Shown here in pieces: positions 3,370-64,000 of a DNA stretch of 64,000 nucleotides. The notes beneath the pieces were generated by a model that had not been told where the DNA came from, did not search any database, and worked only from the letters and a program-made list of their open reading frames with translations. This stretch comes from Flectonema sp. DT1601 (taxonomy: Eukaryota), in contig OZ025800.1 of the NCBI GenBank assembly GCA_964019425.1, forward strand, positions 868,001 to 932,000, given 5' to 3'. Each line of letters opens with the position of its first letter. Positions within the stretch are counted from its first letter, which is position 1. Both the position numbers and the translations under genes were made by a program.

Positions 3370-5020
3370 CTACCCTCCACCTGGTGTTGCCTCCTCAGTG
3401 GTTGTTTTTTTAGCTCTTTTTTGGTCTTTTTTAATTTTTTTAATCAGCTTTCCCCATTCTGTCCGAAGCCGCTTCGCAAAGACGTCGATGTCGCCGCTAT
3501 TTTTATTTTTATTTTTTATTTTTTTCCCTTACAAAAGTGACACCATAATTCCTCAAAAAAAAGAAATAATAATCAAAAATACCTCTCAATTCCTATTGCG
3601 CAAGCCAGAGTTAGATAAGGCTGACTCGTATTGTTGGAGTGTGAGCCGTAGTTTTCGAAGGAACATCCGCAGATCGTCTTTCTGTGTTTGATTCGTTTTT
3701 TTTTTTAGGAAAAATATCACTTCTTTCCGATAAGTAAACAAGCACATACTTCTCACCTAACTTAACCACTCTAGGTCCAGAGACGCAATGATTAAATAAA
3801 GCTGAACCAAGTGCAGTGACTTGTGGATTTGGCAGGGAAGATAACGTGATGCAGAAGGAGATGTCATTTCGGGGTGAGATTAATGTAGTCTCTCCAAACT
3901 CAGCAGCTAAATCGTTCATCTTTGAATGAAATATCGTTAAAGCTGATTGTCTCTCTGACAGTAATCGTTTATAACCCACACGCCCAAGGGATAACAATGT
4001 TATGAACATGTCGAGAATAGGACTTCCAGATGCCCGACCTGCGTATGTTGCTGCGATGTGTTTTAGTGATGCATCGGTTGGCGTAGCAATGACAGATCCT
4101 CCGACGGGAACCATGAAATTCTTATCACCAGATTGAATGATAGCGTCTACTCTACCATGTTCAATTGATGAGTTTATTGCTTTCATTATAGGAGAGCTTT
4201 GAACCCCGTAAGCATTATTTATTACGTGAGGGATATTATGCTTCTTACACATCCTACTTATGTCTAATACTTTATCTGGACTCCTTGGAGCGAAGCATGA
4301 TGTTGTTGAGAGGACGCAGTGAATATTATTTGATCCACCACATTCTTCTATTGCCTTCTCCATTCCTTCTATATCAGTTATGTAAAAATTTTTATTTTCA
4401 GGATCTGGAATTAGCTCTATGACTTTTGCTTTGAATCCTGCTGTGTAGATGCATTTTAAACAAGTTTTTTGATCAATTCGAGACCATATAATCCATTTCT
4501 TCTTTAGCGTAGGACTCGTATCGGATGAACTATCACTACTGTCGGATGACGATGATAAAGATTGAAGAACAAGTGATAATGACATTCCTGTAGCAAGTGG
4601 AACAACCATCGCTGATTCTATTAGTTTGATACCAGCTAATCGAAGAGTATCAGCAACCATTAAGTTTGTAAGTGAATAGAGCAGTGATGAGCCAGCTGCT
4701 TTTGGTTGGTTGGCGATTAAGTCACCTGATCGACCAATACCATGTGAAAGCCCACTGTGACGTTGTTTCACAAGATTGCTGTAGACGCGACCTTCACGTT
4801 CACCAACACCAACATTACCAACGTAGTTGTTGGAGTCCATTAACGAAATATAATTTAGAAAATATTGAATAACATCATCTGACCAACCGTCATCAGGAAG
4901 TCTCCTCTGAGCCATTAAACTCTGAATCATTGACTCCACACGTTGTAAGGCACTGTTAGCATTTTGTATGTATGCTTTGTTTACAATACCACACGCTAAA
5001 GATGTACTTCCCTCATTCAT
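3370..5020 (-). CDS. SEPSECS: O-phosphoseryl-tRNA(Sec) selenium transferase; exons 5020-3750, 3681-3583, 3496-3370
   Basis: MDSNN..GVGEREGR, HGIGRSGD..QPKAAGSS, WSRIDQK, NNAYG, QSGDKNFMVPVGG; two GT-AG introns (3682-3749, 3497-3582) restore the conserved C-terminus YGSH..YLTLACAIG..DIDVFAKRL; 499 codons in frame. Confidence 0.95.
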
Positions 5021-8029: not shown

Positions 8030-8878
8030 TTACTTGGCACACCTAACTGACGACCTGATGTTGTTGTTCGGAGAATGCACTTTTTTAATCCTCCGAGAAG
8101 AAGAAGGAGGAGAGCTGTAACTTATATTGTTATTGGCATTGTTGTTGTGTGACCTACGAATGCTACCTTGAAGAGGAGGAGATGCAGGTAAAGGTATATA
8201 ATAACTGAGCTTAAACCATGTGCCACTAAGAATATTTCCCATCACCTCTGTTTGTATGTCGGGGAGATTGAAATCATCAGCGAGAACGTTTCTGACTATT
8301 TTGTGAATTTCTCTTACGGCAGCATCACGAGTGAGTCCGACAGGTATATCTTCATCTTTTATTAAATAATTAGCAAACCTACCAGATGGTAGTTTGGCCC
8401 ACACGCTTGCATCACCACTTGATGCAGCTTGCATCATATTGCGCATAGCATCTTCGACATACTCAACAGTTCGGTGTCGCATATCAGTCAGCCAGTTATG
8501 AAGTGAGGTTTCCTTATCGTGACATAATCTAAAGAACACGAATGCGTTTCCTCGTGAAAAATCACGCATTCCGTGGTCGATGTGGTAATTTTGAACGCCC
8601 CTTTCTTCCAGTATCTCCTCAGCTGTGTTGTACAAAAAGTCGAGAGCCTCATTATCAGTCATCCAACGGGGCTTTCCATCATTCGCTGTTAAGAATTTGA
8701 CTGAGTGAGCGCCCCATGCCATGGGTTCGTGCAAGTTATCAAACCCTCTGTCAATCTGTTCTTCCACAAAATCGGTCATCTTTTCTCGTTGTTTTTGTTG
8801 CCAACCGCTGTAGTGACCTTCTAGAGCTTGCTTTAACAGAATGGAAGCTGCGCCCCGTTGCACCTTTCCCTCATTCAT
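8030..8878 (-). CDS. Hypothetical protein
   Basis: 282-aa ORF from the first ATG, preceded by a TACAG acceptor-like site; protein-like composition. Confidence 0.65.
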   Translation of the reverse strand: MNEGKVQRGAASILLKQALEGHYSGWQQKQREKMTDFVEEQIDRGFDNLHEPMAWGAHSVKFLTANDGKPRWMTDNEALDFLYNTAEEILEERGVQNYHIDHGMRDFSRGNAFVFFRLCHDKETSLHNWLTDMRHRTVEYVEDAMRNMMQAASSGDASVWAKLPSGRFANYLIKDEDIPVGLTRDAAVREIHKIVRNVLADDFNLPDIQTEVMGNILSGTWFKLSYYIPLPASPPLQGSIRRSHNNNANNNISYSSPPSSSRRIKKVHSPNNNIRSSVRCAK

Positions 8879-9182
8879 TTTGCAATTCGGCGCCACCTGT
8901 AAATAAATAAAGGCTGATAACGTCGAGAAACTGTAACGGTAACTAATCTAAGCTGAATATCTTATTGCTGTTCTGCCTTAAGTCTTTTAACCTCCAGATA
9001 TGAAATGAATTACGGAAAGAAAAAGAAAATAAAAAAATATTATTTTTTTTTATTAATTTATTAATATTATTAAAAGTAACTAATTCTTGCAAAAAAGAAG
9101 ATGGGGGGGGTGAATGTTTGAATTTGTAAAATACAACTGTTTTGTATCGCGTTAACATAACGATAGTTTAACATCTGTTAAG

Positions 9183-9318
9183 GATACAGTGAACTATGGT
9201 GATGCTTAACTTAGCCTTTTAAAGTAACTATTAGGTTTCGAGAGTAATCCATATACCTCTTACCTCTATTCTCTCTCATCAGTATGGTGTAGAAGTCAAT
9301 CAATTATTAAGACCGAAG
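9183..9318. repeat. Dispersed repeat family A (carries the hammerhead); related copies ~16860-16986, ~39285-39378, partial ~63292-63349
   Basis: Shared blocks gagagtaatccat, cctctattctc..catc..tggtgtagaag and gatacagtga..ggtgatgc.taacttagc..aaagtaacta. Confidence 0.75.
9233..9296 (-). ncRNA. Hammerhead ribozyme candidate, non-circularly permuted (family A)
   Basis: Minus strand ACTTCTA ca CCATA CTGATGA GAGAG aa TAGAGGT aag AGGT A TATGG atta CTCTC GAA ACCT; stems CCATA/TATGG, GAGAG/CTCTC, AGGT/ACCT, extra ACTTCTA/TAGAGGT; predicted cut after GUA (9254/9253). Confidence 0.8.
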
Positions 9319-12300
9319 CACTCCAAGATGGGGGGAAAAAGAAAAGAAAGAAAGAAGAAAACGTTAACGCAAACAAGTGGGTAGCAGAGATTGAAGACGA
9401 GTCGACTCGGCACAAACAGAAGTCATATTGGTTCATGGCTGTGCCCTTACTAACCAGCCTCCCTAAACAAACGAAATTGAAAAAAATATGAACTTTGGTA
9501 GGCGCCGTGTTCCACGTTCGTTGTCCTGTCATTTATTGTGCGCTCTTGTAAGACATACGTTTGGAAATGATGAATCAGTTATTTTTTAAAAAACGCTCAA
9601 AAAAAAAAGAAGAAAAAAAAAAAAAAAACCCCCCGATTTTTCAAAGTACGTACATGGTCGAGAACTTTTTCTTTTTTTGTCAAATTTTTAAAATATGTTC
9701 CGTCTACTCGTGCCTGAACCACATTCCGGGATCAGGTGAACCTTCCGAAGCTGCGAAAATGTGCATAAAATGAACTCTCTCGACATCGGCATTTGAAAGA
9801 TTGGTCAAAAATGAATCAAAAAACACCCCCCCCCCCCGACTCTAACTTTTCACATAATAACGGTTACCTCCGAAGACATATCTCTTGACTTGCGTTCTCA
9901 GAACCAACAACCGTTGTTTCTGCCTAAGTCCGTGAAAAGGGTTTTGGTGGAGGAATGGAAAATAGCGGGAGCTTGTTTTGTTTTACTCGCATTTGGGTTA
10001 GGTGAAGCAAGAGCATTGGGGCGGACCCACAAGGGTGTAGTAAAGTTATGATAGCCTTGATGAACCCACCAACGGGATGTAAACCATTACTAGGAACTCT
10101 ACAGATGTTACTACAGACTCGGAAGCTTTTATAATATTATTTACTATTGACGGTGTAGCACTACAATGAATTTATTTTAAGTTTCTGATGTGCATAATCA
10201 AAAACACGCACGTGTTATTTTTCTTTTTTGCTATTGGCTCTGTCTCGAACTGATGACTCCGGGGTCTGGGTACCCGCGACCTTGAAACAAAAAGAAATGA
10301 TCAGCAAGAAGTGGTAAAACCTCCTTTTATGAAACAATCACATGTGTCAAATGCCAAAATAATTGTAAGCACTAACATTGCAACGCGCTTACACGAACAC
10401 AAGGAACAGTTTCAACAAAGTTGAAATAGAATTGTACTCCGGACCAGAATATACGAAAATTATTTGATCCTTCTATAAAGTAAAAAAAGAAATATTGATT
10501 CACGAATTTTAGACACACAAAACACAGGAAGAGAGCCTCACCACAAGGTGTACAGTTGAGCGAAGCAACGTCTTTTCGTAAGTTCACTTCCTCCTGGTTT
10601 GTTTTGTGTGGAATTAAAAAACAGAATACCAAATGGGAAGAATTAATTACTTCAATAAGACGAAAGGAAAAAAAGAGAGAACTCAAACAGCAACCGCACC
10701 AATAGAGATCAAGGAGATTTTTTTTTTTTTTTCGCAGCTTCTACAGTATTAGAATAAGAAATTTAGCTTGCCTGCTGGTGTTTATAACTTTTATAACTAC
10801 TGCTGACATCTTTTTTTTTTTTTTTTTTTTTTTTTTCCCCTTTTTATGGGGTAGCGACTTTTAAGTTACGGAGATATTTTTTAAAAAGTAACTACACTTC
10901 TGGGTCGCACTGCTTGCAAGCAAATCAGGGAATATAGACTCCAGAAAAAAGCTGTCTCATCGAAGAAAGACGAGCTCAAGGAATTGAGTTTTATAAAGAA
11001 GGCGAGAAGCGTATCCATAATTGTTACAAACAACAACTCACTGTTCTATTTAACCAAAACACGACTTGAGAATGAAAATTGAAAACGATTGCCTCTCATT
11101 GAGTTACTAACATGTGTCTTGTTAAATATATTCACGTTTTTTTTTTTTTTTTTAGTTTTTTTTTTTTTCCTTCTTTTTTTGATACATCTTTAGATTCACT
11201 CTTGTGGCACACGGTAGAGTCGGAAAGAGTCGGAAAGGAAAAATAAAACAGAAAAACAGATTCACGGGGGAGAGTTTGTGAGAAAGAAACAACACAAACC
11301 CTACAGAACAGCCGAAGGCAAAAAAAAAAACGAAGACAATCACAAGAAGAACATATCGATATATCAGTTCAGACTGTGATATCGAAAAAGAATTATGAAC
11401 ATAACGACGTTCATCATCCTAGTTTAATAAAAGGAGAAAAAAGAAAAAATGTTCGCATGGGCACCAAAATCAAAAACCAAAAAAGAAAACACATCGTTCT
11501 GCTGTTCCATATTACAGCGTGGAATACTCTTTCACCACGAATACAACACACAACACATTATTACTCCGGCTATTGGTTGGGTATACAAACTCAAGTAGAC
11601 AAAAAGAAAACATTTATCCAAGTGAAGCAAGTAAACCGATGAGATGACTAATTAGTATTTTGACACATCAAAGGAAGTATTTCCTATCGATACGTCGTCT
11701 TTTGTAATGTTATTTAGCAACATCCCAGAACCATTGCGAGGATGGTACAAAGACTTTAATACGAATTGATACCAATAAGAATAAGATAAACAATTTCGGG
11801 GAGAAAAACTAAAGAAAAACAGATAAAAACCGCACAACACTTGGAAAGCAATTAACGGAAAAGTTAGGACATCAGTCGGAAGTCAGGAAGGTTTTTTTTT
11901 TTTTTTTTTTTTTTTTGGTTTTTTTTTTTTTTTTTGAGGTCTGTTCAATTTCGAAAAAAAACAAAAACAAAAAACAAAAAAAAAAAGGGGAGAAAAAAAA
12001 GAGAAAAAAAAAAGCGAAACCAATATAATATTGGGTTCGAGATTATTGTGATACCCTATGAAAAATAAAAACACTAAAAAAAATGATTATCTTTTGCACG
12101 GAAAATGCCGTAAAAACTGTAAAACACGTTTTCGTTTTTCTTGCCACTTATACTTGTGGGGTGCAAACGGGAATAAAAAAAAAAAAAAGAAAAGAGAGAA
12201 CGAGAGAAAGAGAATAATACTTTTTACGAAACTATCGTGACAATAAGATTCCTGGGATGACATCGGCTTTCACTTACTATACAGAAAATAATAAAACATT

Positions 12301-14992: not shown

Positions 14993-16251
14993 TTTCGGGA
15001 TCCTTTTTAAATGAGAAAAGTATTAATAAACTGATTAAGATGCTTTCACCAGTCGTTGTCATTTTCTGTTAAGACAGAAGTCTTTTGACTAAGATCAGTA
15101 ACTGTACTTGTTGTATTTTTTCCTGCTGAAAGATAGAATTAGGTTGACAATAATCAATACTCAACACGCCTAAATAATTAACTGTGGTTTTCCCGTAAAA
15201 GATGGAACGAAAGAAGTAATGGAGAAAAAGAAAAAAATAATAATAATCCAATCCACATGCCTGTCAACTCTTACTTCATGACTTTTGTGCATGCAGCTTT
15301 ATGCGATTTGGAATTACTTAACGTACCGTAAAAGAAAATGAAATGTCAACACAAAAAAAGAACAAAGAAAAAAGTTGCCTTGACAAACTACCCATAGGAT
15401 TTCGTATCTTATTGTCTGTACGAAGCTATTAACCATCTGAGAAGCAACTTTCTTAAGTAATTTGAGTAAATCAAGAAGGGGGGTGGAGAAGAAGAAGAAG
15501 AAGATAAAGAATTACCACGTCCGAAATATACTTATTTGATGGACAGAAAAATAGAAACAACTATTCCTCTGTGTTCTTTGCATCTGTCGGAGCTGGAAGG
15601 TTAAGTGAATACAACTCTAATCACCCCTATTGAAGGGTTTGTATGCAGAAGATGAGATTGGGAAGTCAGATGAATAATATCAACAAAATCATCAACTGCA
15701 AATCAAAAAATCACATTTTCGCCCAATTAAAACCAGAATGCAAAAAAAGCCCCGATGAACTTTTTTTTTCACGCCGAATAATAACCAGCGAGGCGAGAAA
15801 TTCGGTTTCTATTCAAGCAACACACCTTGAGGATTGTAAAATATTTATTTTATGTTTTCCTCTTTTTTTTTAAAATAGTTTGCTTTTTTTTTTTTGAAGT
15901 CAGGAAAGTCAACCTCAGAAAGATAATTCGATCCTACACCAAAGCTGAGTATTGGGCCAAAGGCTCATCGAATCATCTCACAACGAGATCTGATTTAGAT
16001 ACAACAATAATAGGTAACTACCAAATCCTACCGCATACACAGGGCAGGCAGTGTTACGGCAGTGGCATGGTTGATTTAGAAAATTAGAGAATATTACAAC
16101 TAGATTAAGAAAAAACGTTTTTACCAAAGCTGGTTCCTTTTGATCAAGTTAGTATCATTAATTTTAGAACAGAAAAGTGAGAATAAGAAAAGTAGAGATC
16201 AATAAAAGAAAAGTATTCATTTCTGCAGTTTCCTAACATCAAAGGGTAATA

Positions 16252-16413
16252 GAATATGTAGTTTCAGGCCTTAATCTTATACTACTTGTCCCTTTTTAGG
16301 CCTTCATCAGTAAGTTCTAAGGGACTTCATTCTATGTTGAAGTTGCTATCGTTCAAAGATAAAAATCCATCGGAGCTCGCCAGGATAGGGCTAGCAATGT
16401 TTATTTGCTTTTG
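16252..16413. repeat. Dispersed repeat family B (second copy 62457-62641)
   Basis: Near-identical ribozyme block plus shared tccatcggagctcgccagga..gggctagca..atttgcttttg block; sequence between the blocks differs. Confidence 0.85.
16256..16325 (-). ncRNA. Hammerhead ribozyme candidate, non-circularly permuted (family B, copy 1)
   Basis: Minus strand GTCCCTT agaa CTTA CTGATGA AGGCCT aaa AAGGGAC aa GTAGT A TAAG atta AGGCCT GAA ACTAC; predicted cut 16280/16279. Confidence 0.8.
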
Positions 16414-16729
16414 CTCAATTTGAATTTTTGACGTCTTTCCTTTTGATCAAGTTAGTTAGTTAGTCGAAAGGGTTGTCACGAATAAAAAATAAAATAAAAA
16501 GGAGGGGTGGAAAAATAGATTTAAAAAAAAAAAAAAAAAAAAATTCTTCCTTTTCAAAAAGTAACCAAAAGATAATTAAATCTTTTTTTACTATTATCAA
16601 AAAGCCTATAGAATGAGCCAAATAAATAGAAGAAAGACATTAAAAAAACGGTTTGAAGTTAGTTTGAACCGCAGTAGTGCAGGTGTCCGACCTGAACGCA
16701 GTTCGATTACCCAAGCAGTAATCTTCTTT

Positions 16730-16762
<33 letters not shown>

Positions 16763-18357
16763 AAGAAAAGTGAATAGCGGGCGGACTTTTCAAAAATTTT
16801 AAACAATGAATTGAAAAAAGAAGAAAAAAAAAGAGGAAATAGTTGCTGTATGGTAAACTACGGCGATGCCCCAACTTAGTCTTTTAAAGTACCCGTTTGG
16901 CAACCACATATATCCATATATCACTTACCTCTATTCTCATCACCTGGCGTGGCGCAGAAGCAAATCAGTCAGCTATTGAGACTGAATTACTTCACTATAA
17001 AAAAGAGAGCACCTAGTTTTTTTTTTTTTTTTTTTTTTTTGAGGACAGTCTTAAGTGTCTGTTTCTAGATTTATTTTTTTTTTTTTTTTCTATTTTAATA
17101 ACGCCACTCAACTGAAACAAAAAAAGCTAAACGAGTAGACAGTATGACAAGAACAAGAGAGGAGGAGGCTACGATTCCTCTGTGAAGAAGCATAATGAAC
17201 ATGAGTCCCACGAAAATTTCATTTAATATGCGACTTTGTCTACATTTTGCACTAGGAAGAAAGAGAACGCTGATGGAATTTTTTTTTTTTTTCACTTCCA
17301 CACATACGAACATAGTTCACTTCCACACACGAAATGGGGGAAAATATACAAAACTGAAAAAACAAAAAAAACAAACCCATAAGAGTTTTTTTTTGTACCG
17401 ACGCAGTCGGAAGGAAACTACCCAGATTGAAAGCCGTTATTCCTTACGGTCATGATTTATTTTCCTCCATGCGACAGGATTCTGTCTGCGTTCAACGAAA
17501 TATTAAGGCTAATCCGAATGGTTTTTTTTTTTTTTTGTGTAAAAGAGAGGAAAGAAAAAAAATTGAAGGAATCACAGGCCAGTCGGGACCGAGACAGAAA
17601 AGGATTTTTTTTTTTTTTTTTTTTTTTTTCCTGCTTATCAGAACCCGCTTCGAAAAAGAAATTTATAAAAAATTAAAAAATAAGAAACGTTAAACAAAAA
17701 ATCGAGAGAGAGAGAGATAAGGAAGTTCATTACGTTATATATTGTGCATCGCTGATACAGCAAACTAAAGAGCATAGGGTTAACTCCCTAGAGCTACGAA
17801 GCAACGGCAACGTAAGTAAACCAGCATAGCTAAGGTCGAAGGCTGAACAGCATACCTAACAAGCAAAGGAAAAAGACTAAAAGAGAAACGGCGGAGCGCT
17901 CGGATATAAAAAAAAAAAAAATAAAAATAAAAAATAACGGAACACGACAAACTACATGATAAGTAATTCTGTTCTTTAATATATTGATACAAAGGGATAC
18001 TGAAAGTAATCGAATGAGGTGGAAAAAGAAAACCAAACCTTGATTGAGTACAAGAACGTTGAAGAGGCGAACTTTTGTAGTGATATGCCCACCCAAAGAG
18101 GCAAGGAGCAGGAGAATGTCCCTGAAGGCAACAGTTATTCGGCACCAACAGTGAGACTCCCAAAAATGTCTGTATTATAAAGGTCAGCTTCGACGTATCA
18201 ATTACACAAGCTATAAGGCAGCACTACAAGAGTTACTCTACACAGTAGATGTCAACAATTTTAAGACAAAATTGTCACATCTCATATTCGTTAAAATGAT
18301 AAGGCGATTCAATATTTTATAAAAATTAAAAAAAAAAAAACGATAAAAATGATCTGG

Positions 18358-18389
<32 letters not shown>

Positions 18390-20692
18390 CAAGTCGGAGG
18401 AATACCTTTTTCGTCACAGGTGCTACTCGTTAGTGATATCAGCAACCCATTTGACTGAATCGCCATAACGTCATAAACGTTATATTGATAAATGGTATAA
18501 AGAGGTTAGGTGGATGAAAGGAATACGTTTGCTATCATAAAAACACATCTTGATCACAAAACATACAACTAACGAACTCAGTCAGAAATCGTACGGACTC
18601 ATCTCTTTTTTTTTGAAAAAACAACTTCTTATTACCCGAGAGATTATTCATCGAATGAAAAAGAAAGGAAGGTGACGAAAAAAAAAAAATTTTCGTAATT
18701 CCCTCATTGTTAAGGAAGTCATCTCAATTGTAATAATTTGTTTTATACGAAATTAGTGTTTCTGTCGAGCGGATTTGAAATGTGGCGATGCGATGAACAT
18801 TTGTAAAAGATCAGATTTAACATTTCAGCACCGACTACGAGTTTTCTTACTAACGAGATCATCTCATACAAGTTCCTTTTTTTTTATCTACAGTCACCAA
18901 TCAAGTCTCCTGAGTGCGACTGATCTGCATTAAAGAGTTTCACTAGTTGGTCATAATTAAATTTGGTTCGTTCTTTTTATTATTTTATTAATGAGTCTAC
19001 AGTCACCAAATACTCATAGTGCGGATATTCAGCAACAAAGAGTTGGTCACAGTCATGCAAGAATAGTTCTACAGGTATCCATCAGGTCTCTGATGCGACT
19101 GATCTGCGAACCAAAAAATCAGTTTTTTTTTTTTTTTCTTTTTTTTTTTAGCAAATCCAAAACCGATGATTGAGGTCTGGGTAACCCGCACCAGTAGAGG
19201 ATCCATCCTATCACGGAGATTGTGTTTTTTATTGCTCCGGTTGGACTGAGTACTTCCCAGCTGTCCACCTTGCCAGAAACTTGGTTGAATATAAAAAAGA
19301 AAATAATAAATGATCAGGGATAGGATACGGAGCAATAAATAAAAACATCACTTCTACTTTCCAGATATAAAACGCTTTCTGCTTCCTTGAAAGAATCGCA
19401 TGTTTTTTTTTTGTTTTTTTTCGAAGTCAGGGAATTCAAAACCCCCGAGGAAGTCTGTGAGGCATTAGTAATTTCGTTACCACACACCGTGAGACTCTCA
19501 CAGGCGAGAAGAGACGTAATTTTTAAGCAAAATGTGTCAAAGACTTCTTCACGAAAGAAAATTAAAAAAAAAAAAAAAAATCAGGAAAAATAAAAAACAA
19601 AAAGAATAAATTTAAAAAAAAAAAAAAGGAAAAGGTTAACTGTTTGAGCAAACCTATAGTGATACAAATTGTATCAAAGTAAACTAATATAAACATGAGA
19701 CTGTATACTATTAGTAGAGGCAAACGCTCCGAAAATGTCATAAAAGACTCTACATTATAGTCAATAGCTTTAACTTATCTACAATTGTACCTTTTTTCCG
19801 CCGTGAGCTGGGAAACCAAAACTAGAGTACAATGAAATACGGCAGAGTGTAAGTTTCGCTTAATAATAACATGATCACTCTCAGCTGGGTTGGGGGGGTT
19901 AACTGTTTGATTTTGTACGTAAATACAATTGTATTCATAAACGGTTAGGGTGGGGGGTAACTCGATACCAACTTGAAATTGGCAAAAACCAATATAAGGT
20001 TCGGCCAAGCCTAAGAAGATCAGCAGCTGGTATCGACAAAACCCCCATACGAATATGGGGATTCGGGGGCCACGTACTACAGGTTGAGCTCTGTAGCCCG
20101 TTACAGCTTAAAAATAGCATTCCTTCACACTTTATAAATCAAATAAACATTAAAGGAAAATCAAAAAAGATAAAATTACTTTTTTTTTTCTTTTTTTTTT
20201 TTGACGGAGGGGGAGCTACCTGAAAAGCTGCTTGATAACTGCAAAAAGTAAGCGTGAGTAATTTCACACTCGGGTAATTAAAAAATTAATTACGGTGTAG
20301 ACACACAACAATACATCGAAGAAAGTAAAATATTTCACAAATATTTGTGTGAACAAATTCGCATCAAGTTAGCTTGTTAAGCCTCGCTTGTATAGAAAAC
20401 AGCATTGTATGACAAACAAAAAGAAAAAACAACAGTAGCCCAGTGTGCACTATCCGCAACGAGTTAGTTCGTTACTGATGAAAAAACTCGAATGCAAAAT
20501 ACCAACATTAACAGTAGGCTCCGTTTGTAAATAGGGAGAAAAAACAAATAACCAACAATCGAATCGCAAGCACGACAGCTCAGTCGTCAACTGCTACTTT
20601 TACGTGAGCAGCGATGATTCTTTCAGTTTCTTTTTTAATGAAACTCAAAGGTAAAGAATAGAGAGAAGGCCTAACTAAAATATAACACAACA

Positions 20693-38277: not shown

Positions 38278-38906
38278 ACTGAGATTTTTAGTAAATTATT
38301 TCTGTAGAAGAAGATATAAACACACAATAGGGTAGCCTGTAGCTAAACTCTGGAGAGGATCTCAAGATAAGTACAACAGAACGATTAACTTTCATGTAAT
38401 GTCTTACAAGACAGTTGACTAACGGTATTAAAGTAAACCCACCGTAACGCATTGGATCAGTATAAAGTAATAAACACATTTGTTTCTGTTTATAGAAAAG
38501 GTTAATATAACCACGCGGATATTCTTGCAATACAAAACACGCAGACTGTCTCGAAAACTGGTGGTGGCATTATAACGAATAAACTGTATTGAGACTTCGA
38601 ATGAATGTAATTATATAACAAAGACTTGCGAATATTAAATAAAAAACAAAGTATGACAAATAATGACTAAGAAACACACTGCTTACAAACGCTAGCATTA
38701 CACTGCCCTGACTGAGGTGTTTTTGAGACGCGGGACGATTTCGGTTTATATAATTGACATAAGTGATGCATCTTTTTATTTTTTTATTATTTTTTGGGAA
38801 AACCTACAGATCCACCCCCAGGTTTGGGGAAACGTACACTACGGTCACGGCCTTGTGTAACTTTTTTGACCCCTGCATATGTGTTTAAATCCGCAAAATC
38901 GAAGAC

Positions 38907-38977
38907 GACGCAAATTGTCGAGTGGTATGATTCCAGACTTGCATTCGCTAGGCTGCGGTTCGAACCCCTGTCGGGTC
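38907..38977 (+). tRNA. Degenerate tRNA-like Pol III cassette (TGC at anticodon position)
   Basis: A-box-like TTGTCGAGTGG, B box GGTTCGAACCC, tRNA length, followed by long oligo-T; acceptor and anticodon stems poorly paired. Confidence 0.5.
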
Positions 38978-39104
38978 TTTTTTTTTTTTTTTTTTTTTCC
39001 CCCCCCAGTGACCAACAGGTATACTGACGTCGTGCGTCGTATCCGTACTGCTGATTCGTTCTGTCACGTTCGGACACTCGTCGCTCTGAGACATTGCTTA
39101 GTGC

Positions 39105-39215
39105 AGGTTGCTGACTAACAACATCGTTTGAAAGTCTTACACCAGAACCTCATTGGTACCTTACAAAGACCCTGCATCAAATTCACACGCGGGTCGTTCT
39201 TCAAGGTCAATAGTG
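39105..39215 (-). rRNA. Possible degenerate 3'-terminal LSU rRNA fragment
   Basis: Order TTGAAGAACGAC..GGGTCTTTGTAAG..AACGATG..GTCAGC loosely follows the eukaryotic LSU 3' end and is collinear with the clear fragment at 39480-39784. Confidence 0.3.
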
Positions 39216-39479
39216 TAAACTTCCACTCGACTTAGGACCTCGCTTGGAAGCCTTCTGTCATCGCGCAATTCTTCCTTAAGTTAAGTTAAACTTAACTTTA
39301 ACATAAGAGAGTAATCCATCGTCCTGTTAACCTCTATTCTCTCATCATGGTGTAGAAGTAAGTTAGTCAACTATTGATGTAGTTACTTAATTGTAATGTT
39401 CATAAAAAAACATTCTTATTGTTGTAATCTTTTGGACGCAAGCCCTAACACGATCAAAAAGTAACCACCAGTGGTGACT

Positions 39480-39784
39480 AAGTGATCCAGTCTGGCTTAC
39501 TTCAAAGGCTAACATAGTCAAGCACAGTCACTGCGGATGTGTTGTGTAGCATCACGGCTCCGATCGGAGAACCGTAGATACCAGGGACTAGAAACGGGAG
39601 TTCCTCTCGTACTCCCGTATTGCGGTCGACTTACACTGCCCCAAGGGGGTCTCTCCCCATCAGTAGGTAAACTTGTCTCACGACGGTCCTGTTAGTGGGT
39701 GAACTATCCAACCCTTGGACAATTCTGCTTGTCTAGGTTAGGAAGAGCCGACATTGAAGGATCAAAAGCAATGAACGCTTGGCT
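39480..39784 (-). rRNA. Degenerate LSU (28S) rRNA fragment, domains V-VI; non-functional
   Basis: AGCCAAGCGTTCA, TTTTGATCCTTCAATGTCGGCTCTTCCT, GTTCACCCACTAA, GACCGTCGTGAGACA, CCTACTGATG and sarcin-ricin loop AGTACGAGAGGAAC (39600-39613), with internal deletions. Confidence 0.9.
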
Positions 39785-40064
39785 GGGTTTGCAGGCCCCA
39801 AAAGCTGAACGAAAAAATTGGGCCGTTCGAATCACTAACTTGCATGTTGTCGGTTGCAGTCATCACTCACCTGTCAGCATACTCTTTACCTTAATTACGC
39901 TTAACCCTAACGATGATTTGGCAAATAACAAACCTTGAGGGCATCATTGCGTTGCTACGCTGCACCACGTTGGTAGTATTTAAAAGTTAACAAAGCCTTA
40001 AAAAAAATTGAGTAACAGCGAGATGAACAGATGCCCAGAAAAAAAATTCCGGAAAAAAAAAAAA

Positions 40065-40136
40065 TCCCCCCGAGGGACTCGAACCCCCTACCTCCAGGGC
40101 TTCAGTCCGGCACCAACACCACTGCGCTATCACGGA
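40065..40136 (-). tRNA. Degenerate tRNA-like Pol III cassette (GAA at anticodon position)
   Basis: A box TAGCGCAGTGG, arm CCGGA-CTGAAGC-CCTGG, T arm GGGGG-TTCGAGT-CCCTC, oligo-T downstream; acceptor stem has 3 mismatches. Confidence 0.55.
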
Positions 40137-40264
40137 TTTGAAAAAAATCTCGCCCAGAATAGAGGGCTGTCGATTTGGAAAAAAGGTCAAAAAAGCTACA
40201 CAAGGCCGTGACCGTAGTATACGTTTCTCCAAACCTGGGGGTGGATCTGTAGGTTTTCCCTTAT

Positions 40265-48309: not shown

Positions 48310-49588
48310 TCAGGCGCTTGCGGTTCCAGAAATGGTTTTTTTAGCAACCGCCATCACCGGCTCGTCACCAACATCATCCCATGATCCTTGAGGGTTGAAT
48401 TTAGCAGTAGCACCAGTGAATGGTACTTTACCCTGTGTTGATGATGTGGTGTGTTTGTTTGTTTTTTTGAAGGTTTCGATGTTTTCAACAATAAAATGGT
48501 GTGTCCACATACCTTCAATCCCAACATTTTGAACATTTCTGCATCCTGACTAAACTCTGGGTTCTTAGTAGTGAGTAGCTTGTCACCAGTGAATATACTG
48601 TTAGCACCACAGTAGAACTGTTTTATTGTTTTGTTTTTTTTTTGTTTTTTCTCTAATCTGTCGAGTTTTCACTCTAAAGACAACATACCATCATAGCTTG
48701 AACAGATGTATCGAACTCAGAGCGACCAGCTGATAGCCTGACCATTGTTTTTGGCATAACAATACGAGCTGTGGCAATAGCACGAATCATCTCATCCCAT
48801 GTGATGTGACCTCCCTTTGCGATTTGACGATCACCGAGAGGGGTTCCAGCAACAGGTACTAAGGCGTTAATTGGAACAGACTCAGGGTGTTCAGGCATAC
48901 TTGCAAGTTCGAGTAGTAGAGAGACTCTGTCGTCTTGTTGTTCAGCAATTCCTAAAATACCTCCACAACAGACAGAGATACCTGCCTCACGAACAACAGC
49001 TACAGTCTTTAATCTATCATCATAAGTACGAGTAGTTACAACTTGTTTGTAATGTTTACGAGATGTGTCAAGGTTGTGATTGTAAGCAGTAAGACCAGCA
49101 TCTTTTAATTGCTTTGCTTGTTCAGCTGTCAGCATTCCGAGTGTGCAGCAGGTCTCAAGTCCCATGTTTGAAATCTCACTGACTGTGTTTACGATCTTTT
49201 GGAAACTGTTCTTCTTACCGACCTCTCTCCAGGCAGTTCCCATACAGAATCTTGTTGAACCAGCATCCTTTGCTCTTTTTGCTGCTTCAATAATCTCATC
49301 GTGTTTCAACATTGGACTTGGTTTAACGAAAGTCTTGTGATTAACTGATTGAGAACAATAACCACAATCTTCATTACATCCTCCAGTCTTTATCGATAAT
49401 AATGTCGCTTGTTGAACCTCACAAGGGTCATGATGCTCTCTGTGTACAGTTGCTGCTCTGTGCATTAAATTCATGAGAGGTGTGTTGTATATTTCATTCA
49501 CCTCATCCCAAGACCAGTCATGACGAAGAGCTGATGTAGAAGCGAATCTTCTTCCGGCAGTGTGGGTGAAGAGACGGATGGTTTGCAT
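48310..49588 (-). CDS. BIO2: Biotin synthase (radical SAM), probably mitochondrial; exons 49588-48689, 48617-48513, 48432-48310
   Basis: [37 protein letters not shown]; introns 48618-48688 and 48433-48512 restore [14 protein letters not shown]; 376 codons in frame. Confidence 0.95.
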
Positions 49589-49698
49589 TGTTATGTGATG
49601 ACTACCTACTGAAAGAAAAGATAATTTATTAAAAAATAATCCAACACAGTCATTCATTCCAAACCATAAAGCAGCTCACGCTCTCAAAAATAATTCAG

Positions 49699-50806: not shown

Positions 50807-51331
50807 CTACTTAGTAGCTGATTGGTCAACGAAGCGACTGTTCTTTTTATAGTCATCACCAGATTGCGATACGTTGTATCGCATTTGTAATTCCTTCTCA
50901 ACGAATCCTAATTTTTCATAAAACGTTTTGTTTTCTTCTGAACAGTCAAGTATAACTTTGTAGCACTGTCGACGACAAGCTTCTTCTTGTAGAGCATCGA
51001 CAACACGCAATCCGAGGCGTTTACCTCTGTAGGACTTATCCACAACGATGTCTTCAATGTGACCAACTAAGCCACATGAACGAGTGAATTTATTCTCAAA
51101 AATAATGCTTCCACTTCCGATAATAGTCTTCTTTTGAATATCTTCGATCACTACGGTGAAGTAGCCTTGTTTCTCTCTCAAAGCGTGCTGAGCCTTAAAC
51201 TGATCAAATGTTACCTTACCAACTTCTGTCAGGTTTCCTAAGCATTCCAAAAATCCAATCTCGTAATCACTCTCTCGTAGAGAACGGACGATAAATTCAT
51301 CATCCGAACGACCAGTGAACGTGGTGGTCAT
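50807..51331 (-). CDS. GNA1: Glucosamine-6-phosphate N-acetyltransferase, copy 1
   Basis: E.KF....G..GHIEDIVVDKSYRGKRLG, YKVILDCS, FYEKLGF. Confidence 0.92.
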   Translation of the reverse strand: MTTTFTGRSDDEFIVRSLRESDYEIGFLECLGNLTEVGKVTFDQFKAQHALREKQGYFTVVIEDIQKKTIIGSGSIIFENKFTRSCGLVGHIEDIVVDKSYRGKRLGLRVVDALQEEACRRQCYKVILDCSEENKTFYEKLGFVEKELQMRYNVSQSGDDYKKNSRFVDQSATK

Positions 51332-51764
51332 GTTTGAGCAGCAACTGATGAGTGAATTATTATTTATGTGATCTCAACACGATAGTGTTTGCTTTGTGTT
51401 TCTGTGTTTAAAAGAATTACACCGAAAACCAACTAGACGTTAACGAAGCGCCTTGAGTATCATTTCTAAATCGGCAGAAGTTTTCCTTATTACACCTGTT
51501 GTGAAAATATAGGAGTTTTAAAAAAAAAAAAAAAAAAAAAAATCATAAATTTCAGTGCAACTATTTCAAGCTCAAACCAGGCATACTGTTCGATTGCCTT
51601 TAATGAGTCTCACTTTGTTATTATAGGGGGTGATCGTGTCCCGTTCGAAAGACGTTCGGATAAACAGATGCGACACGTTGCCTACAACAACAGGAGTTGG
51701 AAAGTATTTCTTTTTTTTTAGAGAGGAAACGTTCATAAAACAATTCAGCACTGCTTGGTTTCGT

Positions 51765-52307
51765 CTACAAGCGGCTGGTCATTTTATGTTTACGTAACTG
51801 GTATACGAAGCGACTGTTCTTTTTATAGTCATCACCAGATTGCGATACGTTGTATCGCATTTGTAATTCCTTCTCAACGAATCCTAATTTTTCATAAAAT
51901 GGCTTGTTATCTTCTGAACAGTCAAGTATAACTTTGTAGCACTGTCGACGACAAGCTTCTTCTTGCAGAGCATCGACAACACGCTGTCCGAGGCGTTTAC
52001 CTCTGTAGGACTTATCCACAACGATGTCTTCAATGTGACCAACTAAGCCACATGAACGAGTGAATTTATTCTCAAAAATAATGCTTCCACTTCCGACAAT
52101 AGTCTTCTTTTGAATATCTTCGATCACTACGGTGAAGTAGCCTTGTTTCTCTCTCAAAGCGTGCTGAGCCGTAAACTGATCAAATGTTACCTTACCAACT
52201 TCTGTCAGGTTTCCTAAGCATTCCAAAAACCCAATCTCGTAATCACTCTCTCGTAGAGAACGGACGATAAACTCATCATCCGAACGACCAATGAACGTTG
52301 TGGTCAT
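51765..52307 (-). CDS. GNA1: Glucosamine-6-phosphate N-acetyltransferase, copy 2
   Basis: Near-identical tandem paralogue differing in a few residues and the C-terminus. Confidence 0.92.
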   Translation of the reverse strand: MTTTFIGRSDDEFIVRSLRESDYEIGFLECLGNLTEVGKVTFDQFTAQHALREKQGYFTVVIEDIQKKTIVGSGSIIFENKFTRSCGLVGHIEDIVVDKSYRGKRLGQRVVDALQEEACRRQCYKVILDCSEDNKPFYEKLGFVEKELQMRYNVSQSGDDYKKNSRFVYQLRKHKMTSRL

Positions 52308-52484
52308 TTCTTGGAGGGCAGTGAACTGAAAAAATAAAATTAATTATTAATACACACAACAACAAGCTACTTATTTTTTGGTGTAAATGAAGAAGACGAA
52401 ACAAAACAATTAAGGAAAGTGTCCCCACTCTTCCTTACCAATGTGGTATAAATAGAAATATAATCATCGACGATCAGATGGTAT

Positions 52485-57576: not shown

Positions 57577-59061
57577 ATTGATTAATTACCTACCAAAGAT
57601 AAGTTAGTATTAATGTTATCAAGTCCATCAGACCACCGAGTATCGGTTATGTAGACACTCAAAGAGTACCGGGTGGCTCTTCTGAGGGTCCTCAATACTG
57701 CGGTAGTAGGAAGCTAATCCCGAGGGGGATTATTTTGTTAGTATCAGCACAGGGCATACTAGATCAGGAGATCTAGAAACACTTTACTTCCACCTTGTCT
57801 GGTATACTAGCAGGAAACCACGCAATTAAGTAAACAAAGAAAAAAAAATAAATAAAATAAAATAAAAGATGCTGACAAAAAGTCGACCTGTTAGTGAAAC
57901 CTTGCCACTTAGGTTAGCTCTTCCAAAACAACCAAGGCGGAACAAGATTGACTGCATGGAAGGTGGAAACCGACAGTGTGCGAAGAAGAAAAAGTAAAAG
58001 ACTTAGGTAAAGCATACAACAGGTTATTTGGGAATAACCGCCGTCACACGGGAGAGTGATGAGTAAACCAGGGGCAATAATTACAACTTGGTCCACCGGG
58101 CTGGTGACAATGTTCCAACGTAGGCGTGAAGGGATGTTGTGACCATCAGTATTGGTGTTAAGACCCACTTGACATAAGAGCAAGTGTTAAGGACGGTTGA
58201 TAACACCTATTTTCGCCAAGAGAGGAAGCGCATGCCACAGGGGGATACCAAATAAAATAAAATAAAACAGAAATTCTTTTGGGGGGGAGATGCGAGTTTG
58301 AACTTTCTTTTACTTGTTCAAGGAACACTTCACCGTAAACGACAAAATGAGTGACTGCCATTTAGAGAAACAAAGTACGTGTTAAGAGGTACCTTGACTT
58401 AACAAGATATGCCAAATAACGTAAAACATAATGAAGATTTCTTACCGAGCACTGATACTTCCCTATGAGGAGGAGTCCAACAGTCATGCCGTAATACTGT
58501 GAAAGGGAAAAGGGATTTAAAAGATAGCAGATAAGAAAGAGGCCATACAAGCCAGGGAGAAAGAATGGTGCCACAAAAACCTCTGTCCTTTGTTGCATAT
58601 AGAGGACTGGCCAGATAATAAAAGTCCGTTGCGAAGGCCAGTCTGAAAAATAAGAATTACACTGATAGAGGACGAGGAAGAGTGGAACCAAAAGCCTTAT
58701 CCATCAACCACTGTTAGCATCATATTTTTCTGGGCGCTACATGTTTTCACAAATATATTATTTTATTTATTTATTTATTTATTTATTTACGAAACCTAGG
58801 AAGCCAAAAGCCAGGAAAAGCTCACAGAGTAACAGCTATATCGCTACCAGCAACCGTGAGACTCTCACAGATGATAAGAGACGTAGAATAACCTGGAACA
58901 AATGACTACCTAAACCCACCGTCCACGCGAGCAGACAGTGTTAGAGACGGCTGATAACGCCAATTATATAAATCAAATGAATAGAGTCCTTGATAATTTC
59001 TTTTTTAGATCCAGCAAAAGATATAAACATTTTCAAGAAATAAAACCTAATTCAGGGAAGC

Positions 59062-60598
59062 TATTCGAAAGTATTATGAACCAAAGAAAAGATGGAATGA
59101 CTCTCACTTTTATTTCTTTGGTACAACAGTGGAAAATTAAATTTCAAAAAAAAACAATAGCAATACACACTTTTTTCGGAATTTACAGAAAAATACTCCG
59201 AAAATAAAACAACAAGATGGGCTAAGCCTTTACATTCATGTTCGGCATTCCAATAAAGGAAGAAAGAGGAAAAAGATGATTTTATTTTCTCTTTTTTTTT
59301 AAGTTAAAAAATAGGGCGGTAACTTGATACTGTAATTAAATACAACTAAAATAGAGTTCAGCCAAATCCAGTTGCCATGTAAAAAGACTAACAGTTGGTA
59401 TCGATGCAATCGAGTGAGGGTGAAACCTTTGACATAAAAACAATAACAACTTTTGATATTAATACAAAATTTATATTGTGTTTTCTGAAAAAAATATATT
59501 TGTTGTTGTTAATCAGAGTAAAGGTACCTTTAAAAAGGGAAAATCCAAAATCCCACAGGTTATTCGAAAGTATTATGAACCAAAGAAAAAGATGGAATGA
59601 CGCTCACCTTTATTTCTTTGGTTATCTCGAATCTGTATTCTCCTTTAGCATTTTGGCCAGTCACAACAGTGGAAAATTAAATTTTAAAAAAAAACAATAA
59701 CAATGCACACTTTTTTCGGAATTTACAGAAAAATACTCCGAAAATAAAACAACGAGATGGGCTAAGCCTTTACATTCATGTTCGGCATTCCAATAAAGGA
59801 AGAAAGAGGAAAAGGATGATTTTGTTTTCTCTTTTTTTTTGAGTTAAAAAATAGGGCGGCAACTTGATACTGTAATTAAATACAACTAAAATAGAGTTCA
59901 GCCAAATCCAGTTGCCATGTAAAAAGACTAACAGTTGGTATCGATGCAATCGAGTGAGGGTGAAACCTTTGACATAAAAATAATAACAACTTTTGGTATT
60001 AATATATTGTGTTTTCTGAAAAAATATGTTTGTTGTTGTTAATCAGAGTAAAGGTACCTTTAAAAAGAGAAAATCCAAAATCCCACAGGTTATTCGAAAG
60101 TACTATGAACCAAAGATGGAGGATGGAATGACTCTCACCTTTGTTTCTTTGGTACAACAGTGGAAAATTAATTTAAAAAAAAAAAAAAAAAACAATAACA
60201 ATACACACTCCTTTCGGAATTTACAGAAAAATACTCCGAAAATAAAACAACGAGATGGGCTAAGCCTTTACATTCATGTTCGGCATTCCAATAAAGGAAG
60301 AAAGAGGAAAAAGATGATTTTATTTTCTCTTTTTTTTTAAGTTAAAAAATAGGGCGGTAACTTGATACTGTAATTAAATACAACTAAAATAGAGTTCAGC
60401 CAAATCCAGTTGCCATGTAAAAAGACTAACAGTTGGTATCGATGCAATCGAGTGAGGGTGAAACCTTTGACATAAAAATAATAACAACTTTTGATATTAA
60501 TACAAAATTTATATTGTGTTTTCTGAAAAAATATATTTGTTGTTGTTAATCAGAGTAAAGGTACCTTTAAAAAGAGAAAATCCAAAATCCCACAGGTT
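59062..60598. repeat. Tandem repeat, ~3 copies of a 500-540-bp unit
   Basis: gggctaagcctttacattcatgttcggcattcc recurs at ~59220, ~59760, ~60258; cccacaggtt at ~59552, ~60082, ~60589. Confidence 0.95.
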
Positions 60599-60876
60599 AC
60601 TTGTGTTCCCTTTATGAGCAAAAACTCCCCTCAATTAGTAAGCAACACTTATTAGTATTATATTTCATTAACAACTTTAGGTATTAAAAACAAAATCAAT
60701 ATCAAGTACTTGAAAAATTCTCAAAGAAAAATTACGTTTGGAAAAAAAGAAAACACAAAAGGGAAAACTATACTTTTTGTCTTATTGACCAGAAGATGTT
60801 ATCGAATCTGGTAATTCGGGGACCACGTACTATTAAGTTGAGCGTCCCATGCCCTGTAGTCCGTTACAACTTACAC

Positions 60877-61914
60877 TTAAACAGATTTAAAAGAATTCGT
60901 ATCAGGCATTTGAAAAATTCTAGGCTGCGAATCCATAGACTCGACCTTCCTCTTAGACTTTGATTTTATAAACTGAGTAATTTCAGGAACATCAAGCAAA
61001 CCAGGACAATTAAAGAGAAAGGAAGAATCAAGAAGTGAAACATTACTCAGAGAGGACAAGTCTATCTCCATGAGTCCAGCATTACACATAAAGTATTCTC
61101 CAATTGAAGTTACCTTCGTTAAACAACTGATATCAATCGTCTGCAGAAATTCACAGTCGGATAGGAAGGAATGTCCTATTTTAGTTATGTTCGATAAACC
61201 GCTGATATCAATGTTAGTTAGGGAAGTATTATCACAGAGGAATGCATCAGGTATTTCCGTCAGTTTACTAAATTTTGACAAATCGATAGTTTCAAGCGCA
61301 GAACATCCATGAAGAAATTCAGTGCCTATCGAAGTTACATTACAGAGGCTTGACATATCTAAGTGTGTAAGACTATCACAGTTTTTCAGAAATGAATCTT
61401 TGATTGTTGTGACATAGCACAAACCAGTTAAATCTACTGAAGTCAGTCTCATGTGTGTGTGATCTGATTCGAATAAAAACGAATCTGCGACGGATGTAAT
61501 TGAGGGTTTAGGATTACACCATTCAATACTTTTAACATTTTCTGGCAACAGAAGGCAATCCACATCAATACTTCCGTCAGTTGTGAATGTCGGGCTGTCT
61601 AAGTAGAGGATTTTGTTTGGTTCATCTTTAAATATTGGTTTTATTACCTTCGCCTTGACAGGATCCTTAAAATGGTCGAGTCTGAATATTTGAATCAACG
61701 ATGCGACTAATTGAGAATCAACTGACACACCGTGAGATACTATCTTAGAATTAGAAGGAAGTAAAGCTCCTCCATAATTGAGATCTATTCGACAACTATC
61801 AACTCCCCATTCATCTGCTGCTGTGTTTGATGCTTCCTCCACTAAAGTATCTGTCGTTGTCGTAAAGTTGACGTCACAGAACTCTGTGTTAGGACATGTT
61901 ATTGTGAGATTCAT
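60877..61914 (-). CDS. Ubl-like domain plus leucine-rich-repeat protein
   Basis: 24-aa repeats L..IDLS.L.NVTSIG..FL..C; N-terminal Ubl-like pattern (IDLNYGG..L....I..HGV). Confidence 0.85.
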   Translation of the reverse strand: MNLTITCPNTEFCDVNFTTTTDTLVEEASNTAADEWGVDSCRIDLNYGGALLPSNSKIVSHGVSVDSQLVASLIQIFRLDHFKDPVKAKVIKPIFKDEPNKILYLDSPTFTTDGSIDVDCLLLPENVKSIEWCNPKPSITSVADSFLFESDHTHMRLTSVDLTGLCYVTTIKDSFLKNCDSLTHLDMSSLCNVTSIGTEFLHGCSALETIDLSKFSKLTEIPDAFLCDNTSLTNIDISGLSNITKIGHSFLSDCEFLQTIDISCLTKVTSIGEYFMCNAGLMEIDLSSLSNVSLLDSSFLFNCPGLLDVPEITQFIKSKSKRKVESMDSQPRIFQMPDTNSFKSV

Positions 61915-62460: not shown

Positions 62461-62529
62461 ACGTAGTTTCAGGCCTTAATCTTATACTACTTGTCCCTCT
62501 TAGGCCTTCATCAGTAAGTTCTAAGGGAC
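62461..62529 (-). ncRNA. Hammerhead ribozyme candidate, non-circularly permuted (family B, copy 2)
   Basis: Minus strand GTCCCT tagaa CTTA CTGATGA AGGCCT aag AGGGAC aa GTAGT A TAAG atta AGGCCT GAA ACTAC; predicted cut 62485/62484. Confidence 0.8.
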
Positions 62530-62779: not shown

Positions 62780-63168
62780 CAGTCTGAAAAATAAGAATTA
62801 CGCTGATAGAGGACGAGGACGAGTGGAACCAAAAGCCTTATCCATCAACCACTGTTAGCATCATCGGGTGCCAAAATCCCACAAGTTACTTGTGTTCCCT
62901 TGATGAGCAAAAACTCCCCTCAACTAGTAAGCAACACTTATTAGTATTATATTTCATTAACAACTTTAGGTATTAAAAACAAAATCAATATCAAGTACTT
63001 GAAAAATTCTAAGAAAAATTACGTTTGGAAAAAACGAAAACACAAAAGGGAAAACTTATTGACCAGAAGATGTTGTCGAATCTGGTAATTCGGGGACCAC
63101 GTACTATTAAGTTGAGCGTCACATGCCCTGTAGTCCGTTACAACTTACACTTAAACAAATTTAAAAGA
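62780..63168. repeat. Local segmental duplication (copies of ~58640-58723 and ~60583-60894)
   Basis: cagtctgaaaaataagaattac..ccactgttagcatcat and aatcccaca.gttacttgtgttccc..ccgttacaacttacacttaaaca repeated with few changes. Confidence 0.9.
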
Positions 63169-63817: not shown

Positions 63818-64000
63818 TCAAAGTGTTCTTTTTTTTAATATCTGCGAATCCATAGACTTGACCCTCTTCTTAGACTTAGATTTTATAAACTGAGTAATTT
63901 CAGGAACATCAAGCAAACCAGGACAATTACGGAGAAAGGAAGAATCAAGAAGTGAAACATTACTCAGAGAGGACAAGTCTATCTCCATGAGTCCAGTACT
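63818..64000 (-). CDS. 3' end of a second Ubl-LRR paralogue (runs off the window)
   Basis: Near-identical to ~60925-61078, ending ..SMDSQILKKRTL*. Confidence 0.75.
   Translation of the reverse strand, partial: STGLMEIDLSSLSNVSLLDSSFLRNCPGLLDVPEITQFIKSKSKKRVKSMDSQILKKRTL

Follow-up and report, generated by a model that had tools for sequence, protein, structure and literature searches.

The 64-kb window, by which we mean the whole stretch of DNA analysed, carries all 24 of its reading frames of at least 190 aa on the minus strand. Among its genes, a biotin-synthase-like one (48357-49675) has its last domain in a separate frame (Pfam BATS, E 7.5e-8), which implies an intron, and a tandem pair of near-identical genes (50807-52343; 97% over 509 nt) has a look that we take to be acetyltransferase-like. 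A SepSecS gene is located at 3611-5020 (Pfam E 1e-113), indicating that the host makes selenocysteine. Diplonema papillatum supplies the best named relative of the SepSecS protein (62%); transcriptome records with the labels Rhum and Hpha come next, and other eukaryotes drop to about 50%. Rhum and Hpha are labels used for diplonemids in tables of the D. papillatum genome paper (PMC10161547). Judging from these protein relationships, the window is likely nuclear DNA of a diplonemid other than D. papillatum. According to the genome paper, the latter species arranges its genes in one-strand arrays, uses trans-splicing, has long 3' UTRs and contains about 2500 gene models assigned to retroelements; the text and supplements searched make no mention of ribozymes (PMC10161547).

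A hammerhead ribozyme comprising four helices occupies positions 9296-9233 of the minus strand (copy A9282, an intact member of a repeat family referred to here as family A), as recognised from its pattern and pairing and from a contig identical over 66 nt. On this strand, stem I pairs CCAUA (9287-9283) with UAUGG (9253-9249), stem II pairs GAGAG (9275-9271) with CUCUC (9244-9240), and stem III, of 4 bp, pairs AGGU (9258-9255) with ACCU (9236-9233); the core sequences CUGAUGA and GAAA lie at 9282-9276 and 9239-9236, respectively. The copy has a GUA triplet, and the cut is predicted between 9254 and 9253. A fourth helix, denoted helix X, joins ACUUCUA of the 5' leader (9296-9290) to UAGAGGU in the strand 3' of stem II (9268-9262) through 7 bp, one of them G-U. 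The preliminary description of this DNA had read the core, the three stems and the fourth helix from the same strand, and each element was found at the place given for it.

These elements are grouped in three blocks: block C (9271-9287) consists of the 5' strand of stem I, CUGAUGA and the 5' strand of stem II; block S (9249-9258) of the 5' strand of stem III, the cleavage nucleotide A9254 and the 3' strand of stem I; and block G (9233-9244) of the 3' strand of stem II, GAAA and the 3' strand of stem III. Stem I is linked to stem II by the sequence AUUA (9245-9248), which is common to the three intact copies of the window (see below). In all three, the conserved hammerhead core (CUGAnGA, GAAA and NUH beside stems I-III) is complete, and the blocks follow one another without interruption in the order C, S, G, which is the definition of a type-CSG hammerhead.

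Type CSG was introduced by Eckert et al. in 2023, who described the hammerhead as three blocks, C, G and S, and gave names to the six possible orders, CSG being one of the three that are non-circular (PMC10085705). The two published examples, CSG-1 and CSG-2, are unique but similar sequences from metagenome DNA of unknown host, with modest covariation; transcribed as single-ribozyme constructs, both cleave at the predicted site, at 0.004 and 0.026 per min (PMC10085705). Their structure line also includes an interaction helix between stems I and II, formed where the 5' leader pairs with the strand that follows stem II (PMC10085705), so the fourth helix at 9296-9233 is not new either. A reading of the locus as a new topology was accordingly discarded: the window copies belong to a very rare known kind of hammerhead. 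The earlier question whether architecture and host are new is thus answered in the negative for the architecture, whereas the host and also the repeat setting were not found in the literature searched. The same description had held that the strand order forces either a pseudoknotted fold or a multimer. A fold with crossing helices agrees with our analysis, and a multimer is not needed on present evidence, since the published CSG RNAs cleaved as single-ribozyme constructs and the window copies are solitary; action of the CSG copies as dimers is still conceivable.

Methods for nested folding cannot score such a pseudoknot. Accordingly limited, the best nested fold of the family A ribozyme uses neither stem I nor stem II (z 0.34), and the nested fold of the second family, family B, already contains helix X and stem III. 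The sequence AGAGGUA is present twice in the family A ribozyme, so a register swap is possible there. Helix X measures 7 bp in all three intact copies, the chance of a 7-bp helix at one site being 0.07. A candidate fifth helix closing the ribozyme (6, 8 and 5 bp in the three copies) did not rise above chance (backgrounds 0.21, 0.04 and 0.44) and was rejected.

A descriptor covering all six hammerhead block orders was run on the 64-kb window and on 300 dinucleotide shuffles. Three hits were obtained in the window, all of type CSG and all on the minus strand, at 9296-9233 (A9282), 16325-16258 (B16310) and 62529-62463 (B62514), compared with 0.03 CSG hits per shuffled window. At the stem lengths of 9296-9233 (5, 5 and 4 bp), none of the 300 shuffles gave a CSG hit. 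When one core mismatch was allowed, the same three window hits were recovered, with 21-22 pairs each, and 100 shuffles yielded four hits, none with a perfect core and none with more than 19 pairs. The comparison with shuffled sequence that had been set beforehand therefore places the window far above the shuffle rate, and the strand order CUGANGA, NUH, GAAA read earlier by eye is the one that the six-order descriptor returned. This descriptor gave no window hit in the order of type I, II or III hammerheads (CGS, GSC and SCG), and neither it nor its relaxed version found a ribozyme on the opposite strand of the window.

The expectation that standard hammerhead models would overlook the locus was borne out. 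An Rfam 15 scan of the window at E<=5 detected no ribozyme family and gave no match at any of the three CSG copies, and the published RNAMotif descriptor for type CSG, as re-implemented here, scored 0 hits in the window, missing all three copies. The published descriptor is a search filter and not a definition of the type. It misses family A because only 3 bp extend beyond the core A-U pair of stem III and the linker has 12 nt, and it misses family B because an A-U pair closes stem II at its base.

The two intact family B copies lie on the minus strand at 16258-16325 (predicted cut 16280/16279) and at 62463-62529 (predicted cut 62485/62484), the latter inside a B unit spanning approximately 62656-62352. 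Neither of them, nor the repeat unit surrounding the ribozymes, figured in the preliminary description. Between families A and B, 20 pairs are comparable, of which 11 are changed on both sides, 1 on one side and 8 on neither, and no pair is broken; in stems I-III alone, 7 of 13 pairs are changed on both sides. These counts were made by script, with helix X registered from its 5' end, and represent two independent families without a formal test. Thus, the two families supply covariation in the CSG helices, with pairs changed on both sides. No sequence in common was detectable between A and B outside the ribozyme core, so the pair differences may reflect convergence on one architecture and not descent. 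Within family B, the cores of B16310 and B62514 match in 66 of 68 columns, and the single substitution keeps its pair (U-A to U-G), whereas the flanks show 139 matches, 38 mismatches and 13 gaps (core versus flanks, Fisher p 6e-6).

Contigs matching part of 8030-9590 were present in two public sequencing runs, denoted X1 and X2, and five of them were aligned to 9092-9332. X2 is an RNA library, and its contig 5 shows no difference from the window across the 66 ribozyme bases of 9231-9296 but diverges immediately beyond either end; if the sequences were 80% identical, an unbroken run of 66 matches would have a probability of 4e-7. By eye, the loose ends of this contig (30 nt) are about 75-80% like the window and resemble other A copies, and it continues for 221 more bases upstream, of which 30 are visible in the alignment. 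The C-run at which three family A copies end is also where contig 3 of X2 terminates. Two of the five contigs stop fitting within 1-2 nt of the predicted cut (at 9252 in X1 and 9251 in X2), which, as read by eye, is a weak hint only, as the X2 contig may be a deletion variant. The gene neighbouring 9296-9233 has no coverage in X2, so this run may come from a related species. The occurrence of the ribozyme in an RNA-library contig proves neither transcription nor circles.

Further members were sought by pattern scans of viral contigs (7, 49, at least 120, and 23 loci), metagenome contigs (62) and prokaryote genomes (26), at least 287 loci in total. Among the matches listed, a single locus forms three stems (4/4/3 bp) and none forms four helices; the lone three-stem locus, whose best fourth helix has 2 bp, was counted as chance and rejected as a CSG member. 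These scans speak to the matches they returned and do not show absence, since the metagenome scan missed CSG-1, which fits the pattern by eye, and so lacked a positive control. Family A had no match in phage records and family B none in plasmid records. In two viral contigs, L076 and L089, a well-paired ordinary type I hammerhead (6/6/6 bp) was noticed at about 295-345.

These results bear on whether A9282 might be a dead or accidental look-alike of a hammerhead that does not cleave. The weak, frustrated nested fold and the 4-bp stem III would suit such an object; set against them are the shuffle controls, the existence of three intact copies without a broken pair, an identical core in an independent data set, and the fact that the one three-stem locus among the at least 287 pattern-matched loci listed lacks the fourth helix. 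We regard a look-alike as extremely improbable, and our analysis indicates that 9296-9233 is very probably a working hammerhead fold.

The ribozymes are embedded in short repeat units. The family A unit (9098-9335, minus strand) has a period of 227 nt, is bounded by an exact 11-nt direct repeat (9335-9325 and 9108-9098) and has a C-run as its 3' end, and the family B unit (16134-16456, minus strand) has a period of 303 nt with an exact 20-nt direct repeat at both ends. Nine copies in total were counted on the minus strand of the window, namely the three intact CSG copies and six pieces that are either broken or truncated. Five of these pieces belong to family A: a copy with a broken ribozyme core at 16848-16996 (E 2e-13); a fragment with deletions in the core at 39298-39384 (E 1e-4); a copy lacking the ribozyme half at 63195-63355 (the 63300 copy; E 2e-9), with a gapped flanking direct repeat; a short 3' end at 19888-19962 (the 19900 copy), with the C-run and a gapped direct repeat, whose E of 0.56 is weak alone; and a possible further 3' end at 19634-19685, matched by motif only and missed by the profile. 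The sixth is a 3' fragment of family B without ribozyme at 11475-11537 (E 4e-4). The E-values quoted are those of an independent profile search, later profiles having been built from these same copies.

The fragment at 39298-39384 lies within a larger element, of 1465 bp (38796-40260), between 76-bp inverted repeats that are 96% alike. This element also includes two stretches that are tRNA-like by eye, in which ARAGORN finds no tRNA, and degenerate pieces of large-subunit rRNA (39541-39759; Rfam E 1e-8 and 0.02); its overall appearance is that of a non-autonomous DNA transposon that has captured fragments. For D. papillatum, about 3600 pieces of 28S scattered in the genome are reported (PMC10161547). 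Other repeats were observed as well. A third small repeat, 73% alike, occurs at 20050-20110, 60803-60873 and 63077-63147; for two of the three, the distance to a family A 3' end (that of the 19900 or the 63300 copy) is no more than about 100 nt. A tandem array of about three 500-bp units (59062-60599) is located downstream of an LRR gene, and neighbouring pieces at 60582-60895, 60925-61079 and 58639-58723 recur at 62780-63996, around B62514 and the 63300 copy.

Three family A copies end at the same C-run and differ in their 5' extents. The start of the A unit is common to two window copies (9324-9329 and 16996-16998), and a third begins within about 10 positions of it. Exact direct repeats surround two of the three intact copies: the 11-nt repeat of A9282 has a background of 0.023, or 0.003 when poly-A/T is left out, and the 20-nt repeat of B16310 one of 0.001. 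They are absent or trivial in five of the seven copies tested, including the intact B62514. The gapped repeats of the 63300 and 19900 copies have backgrounds of about 0.013 in windows chosen after the repeats had been seen. The flanking direct repeats may be target duplications or terminal redundancy. No protein family was recognised in the frames across the A and B units, which have no LTR, and no remnant of a reverse transcriptase (RT) or endonuclease was matched in 150 reading frames of the window (138 intergenic and 12 from genes).

A fixed 3' end with variable 5' ends is also what would be expected if the copies derived from a longer retrotransposon that codes for proteins (Penelope-like or of another non-LTR kind) and represented its shortened 3' ends, with a CSG hammerhead in its 3' region and plain target-site duplications as flanking repeats. 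Penelope-like elements are known to bear hammerheads in their flanking repeats, and Chlamys elements to insert at (C)n runs (PMC4209133, PMC8557442); moreover, contig 5 of X2 runs on for 221 bases upstream, and D. papillatum has many LINE, SLACS and R2-like RT genes (PMC10161547). However, the common start of two copies, with a third close by, suggests a defined short unit, the window lacks an RT remnant, and the D. papillatum text and supplements searched mention neither Penelope nor GIY-YIG (PMC10161547). A search of the literature for Penelope-type transposable elements in diplonemids likewise found nothing. We judge an origin from a long retrotransposon rather unlikely, while taking it seriously.

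The bases that follow the C-run of the 63300 copy resemble the start of the A unit (24 of 40 match, background 0.002), and the resemblance persists when the copy's own repeat is dropped (16 of 28, background 0.005), which hints at a circular or tandem template. The corresponding comparison was unsuccessful for the 19900 copy, where 10 of 40 match (background 0.95), and for family B, where the background is 0.29 and the 10-mer in common with the start of B62514 recurs at four unrelated places in the window. No tandem array of the A or B unit is found in the 64-kb window. This hint of a circle, together with viroid-like unit sizes, would fit DNA copies of a viroid-like circular RNA that replicates from RNA to RNA in diplonemids and is occasionally reverse-transcribed into the genome; the sister type SGC is known from metatranscriptome RNAs thought to be circular (PMC10085705), and the RNA library contains the exact ribozyme. 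Against this stand the lack of a ribozyme on the opposite strand, the A+T-richness of both units and the modest folding of the 130-nt tail of A (z -1.4), the single orientation of all copies, and the DNA origin of the published CSG examples (PMC10085705). On balance, a viroid-like RNA is a very improbable source of the copies.

All nine copies of the CSG families are sense to the genes (p 0.004), as are all eight when the motif-only copy is set aside, and from the predicted cuts of the three intact copies to the next start codon downstream the distances are 375, 570 and 1287 nt. Such an arrangement, alongside the conservation of cores over flanks and the placement of all 24 long reading frames on the same strand, could indicate ribozymes adopted by the host and kept by host selection, which would cut polycistronic precursors between genes or in long 3' UTRs; the gene arrays, trans-splicing and long 3' UTRs of Diplonema would provide a suitable context (PMC10161547). 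Nevertheless, the core has been destroyed in two copies that span the ribozyme, which is missing altogether from four pieces; two of the three intact cores are flanked by perfect repeats, as expected for young insertions, so that selection on the source copies of the element suffices; and an insertion preference can yield the sense bias. Host adoption of this kind therefore appears to us quite unlikely.

In the window itself we observe four helices and an intact core; repeats of two families, with direct repeats at their flanks; a C-run that closes the 3' end in family A; 5' ends shortened to varying degrees; and copies that lie sense to a gene array confined to one strand. The explanation that we favour, with a probability of roughly 0.6, is that the CSG fold is part of a short non-coding repeat which propagates via an RNA intermediate and an RT encoded elsewhere. 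By analogy with CSG-1 and CSG-2, crossing helices would bring blocks C, S and G together into the standard hammerhead core, stems I and II would be braced by helix X, and a single molecule would cleave slowly. The anatomy of the copies suggests that a source copy, probably tandem, is transcribed, and the ribozyme would cut out unit-length RNA of about 227 nt (A) or 303 nt (B), which may be closed to a circle. The predicted cut of A9282 falls in the middle of the unit, at 71 nt from its 5' boundary, so that only an uncut, tandem or re-closed template can give rise to a full copy. To judge by the same anatomy, by retrozymes and by Penelope-like elements, an RT acting in trans would start near the C-run and insert cDNAs that are unit-length, slightly longer or shorter. 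Solitary A9282 would cut a polycistronic precursor once, with the next start codon about 375 nt downstream, and solitary copies would decay with time, as the broken copies have.

A further and distinctly tentative proposal is that diplonemids harbour retrozyme-like circular RNAs built on the knotted CSG hammerhead, which would be cut and closed within the pseudoknot, reverse-transcribed from the C-run and inserted sense-only in polycistronic arrays, where young copies would cut the precursor. If true, it would give the type-CSG hammerheads a natural home and a job; elements of this kind would have been missed so far because Rfam and the published descriptors do not see them. Type CSG had rested on two similar sequences from unknown organisms, to which the three copies in two families add covariation and a eukaryotic host lineage. 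Since the fold is tied to short, probably mobile repeats, the role of non-circularly permuted hammerheads in the cell becomes testable, and ribozymes dispersed on the sense strand could shape RNA processing where mRNAs derive from polycistronic precursors. Counts of hammerheads in eukaryotic genomes are probably too low, given that the window copies reveal which descriptor limits need relaxing.

Eckert et al. was the sole source on type-CSG hammerheads in the freely accessible text that was searched; alternative hammerhead permutations are cited in passing by a 2026 paper (PMC13725137). Eckert et al. graded the evidence for biological relevance of CSG weaker than that for type SGC and, with the exception of a doubtful bacterial GCS case, saw permuted hammerheads in none of the known genomes (PMC10085705). 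The literature searched holds no report that appears relevant of a hammerhead in diplonemids or of other self-cleaving ribozymes in Euglenozoa besides the HDV-like ribozyme of the L1Tc/ingi retroposons discussed below. A eukaryotic host, a second family with compensatory pairs and a retro-mobile setting were thus not found in print. Compared with CSG-1 and CSG-2, the window copies show the same four-helix order, a similar length (64-68 nt versus 66 nt) and, by eye against the published alignment, the same four letters AUUA at the junction of stems I and II. They differ in using a GUA site where CSG-1 and CSG-2 use GUC, in having 2-4 unpaired nt between helix X and stem I, in the A-U pair that closes stem II in family B, in the 4-bp stem III of family A, and in their residence in a eukaryotic nuclear genome as multi-copy repeats of two diverged families (PMC10085705).

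Among self-cleaving retroelements, non-LTR retrozymes are non-coding hammerhead units of 150-450 bp (Cervera and de la Pena 2020, PMC7229834). The window units fall within this range (227 and 303 nt) and resemble retrozymes in being non-coding, without LTR, low in G+C and dispersed, with flanking repeats longer than 4 bp (PMC7229834; Li et al., bioRxiv 10.64898/2026.07.22.740005). However, the retrozymes described in these sources carry a type I hammerhead, lie mostly in tandem arrays, belong to animals and have circular RNA demonstrated, whereas the copies described here are of type CSG, solitary and from a euglenozoan protist. Penelope-like elements carry type I or minimal hammerheads in their flanking repeats, the pLTRs (PMC4209133), and an internal start of reverse transcription has been reported for one of them (PMC4209133, PMC8557442, PMC11167929). 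With these and the Naiad and Chlamys elements the window units share a hammerhead near the 3' end of a (here putative) retroelement and an association with C-runs, but the window yielded neither RT nor GIY-YIG, and neither a partial tandem nor an inverted tail. The known euglenozoan case is the HDV-like ribozyme of the L1Tc/ingi retroposons (PMC12278014). These and their short forms RIME, NARTc and SIDER belong to a sister group within the Euglenozoa, and the window units resemble them as probable short retroposons that are non-autonomous and include a self-cleaving RNA; in those elements an HDV-like ribozyme lies in the 5' 77 nt (Pr77) and a poly(A) tail is present (PMC12278014), whereas the window units carry a hammerhead mid-unit, and family A ends in a C-run.
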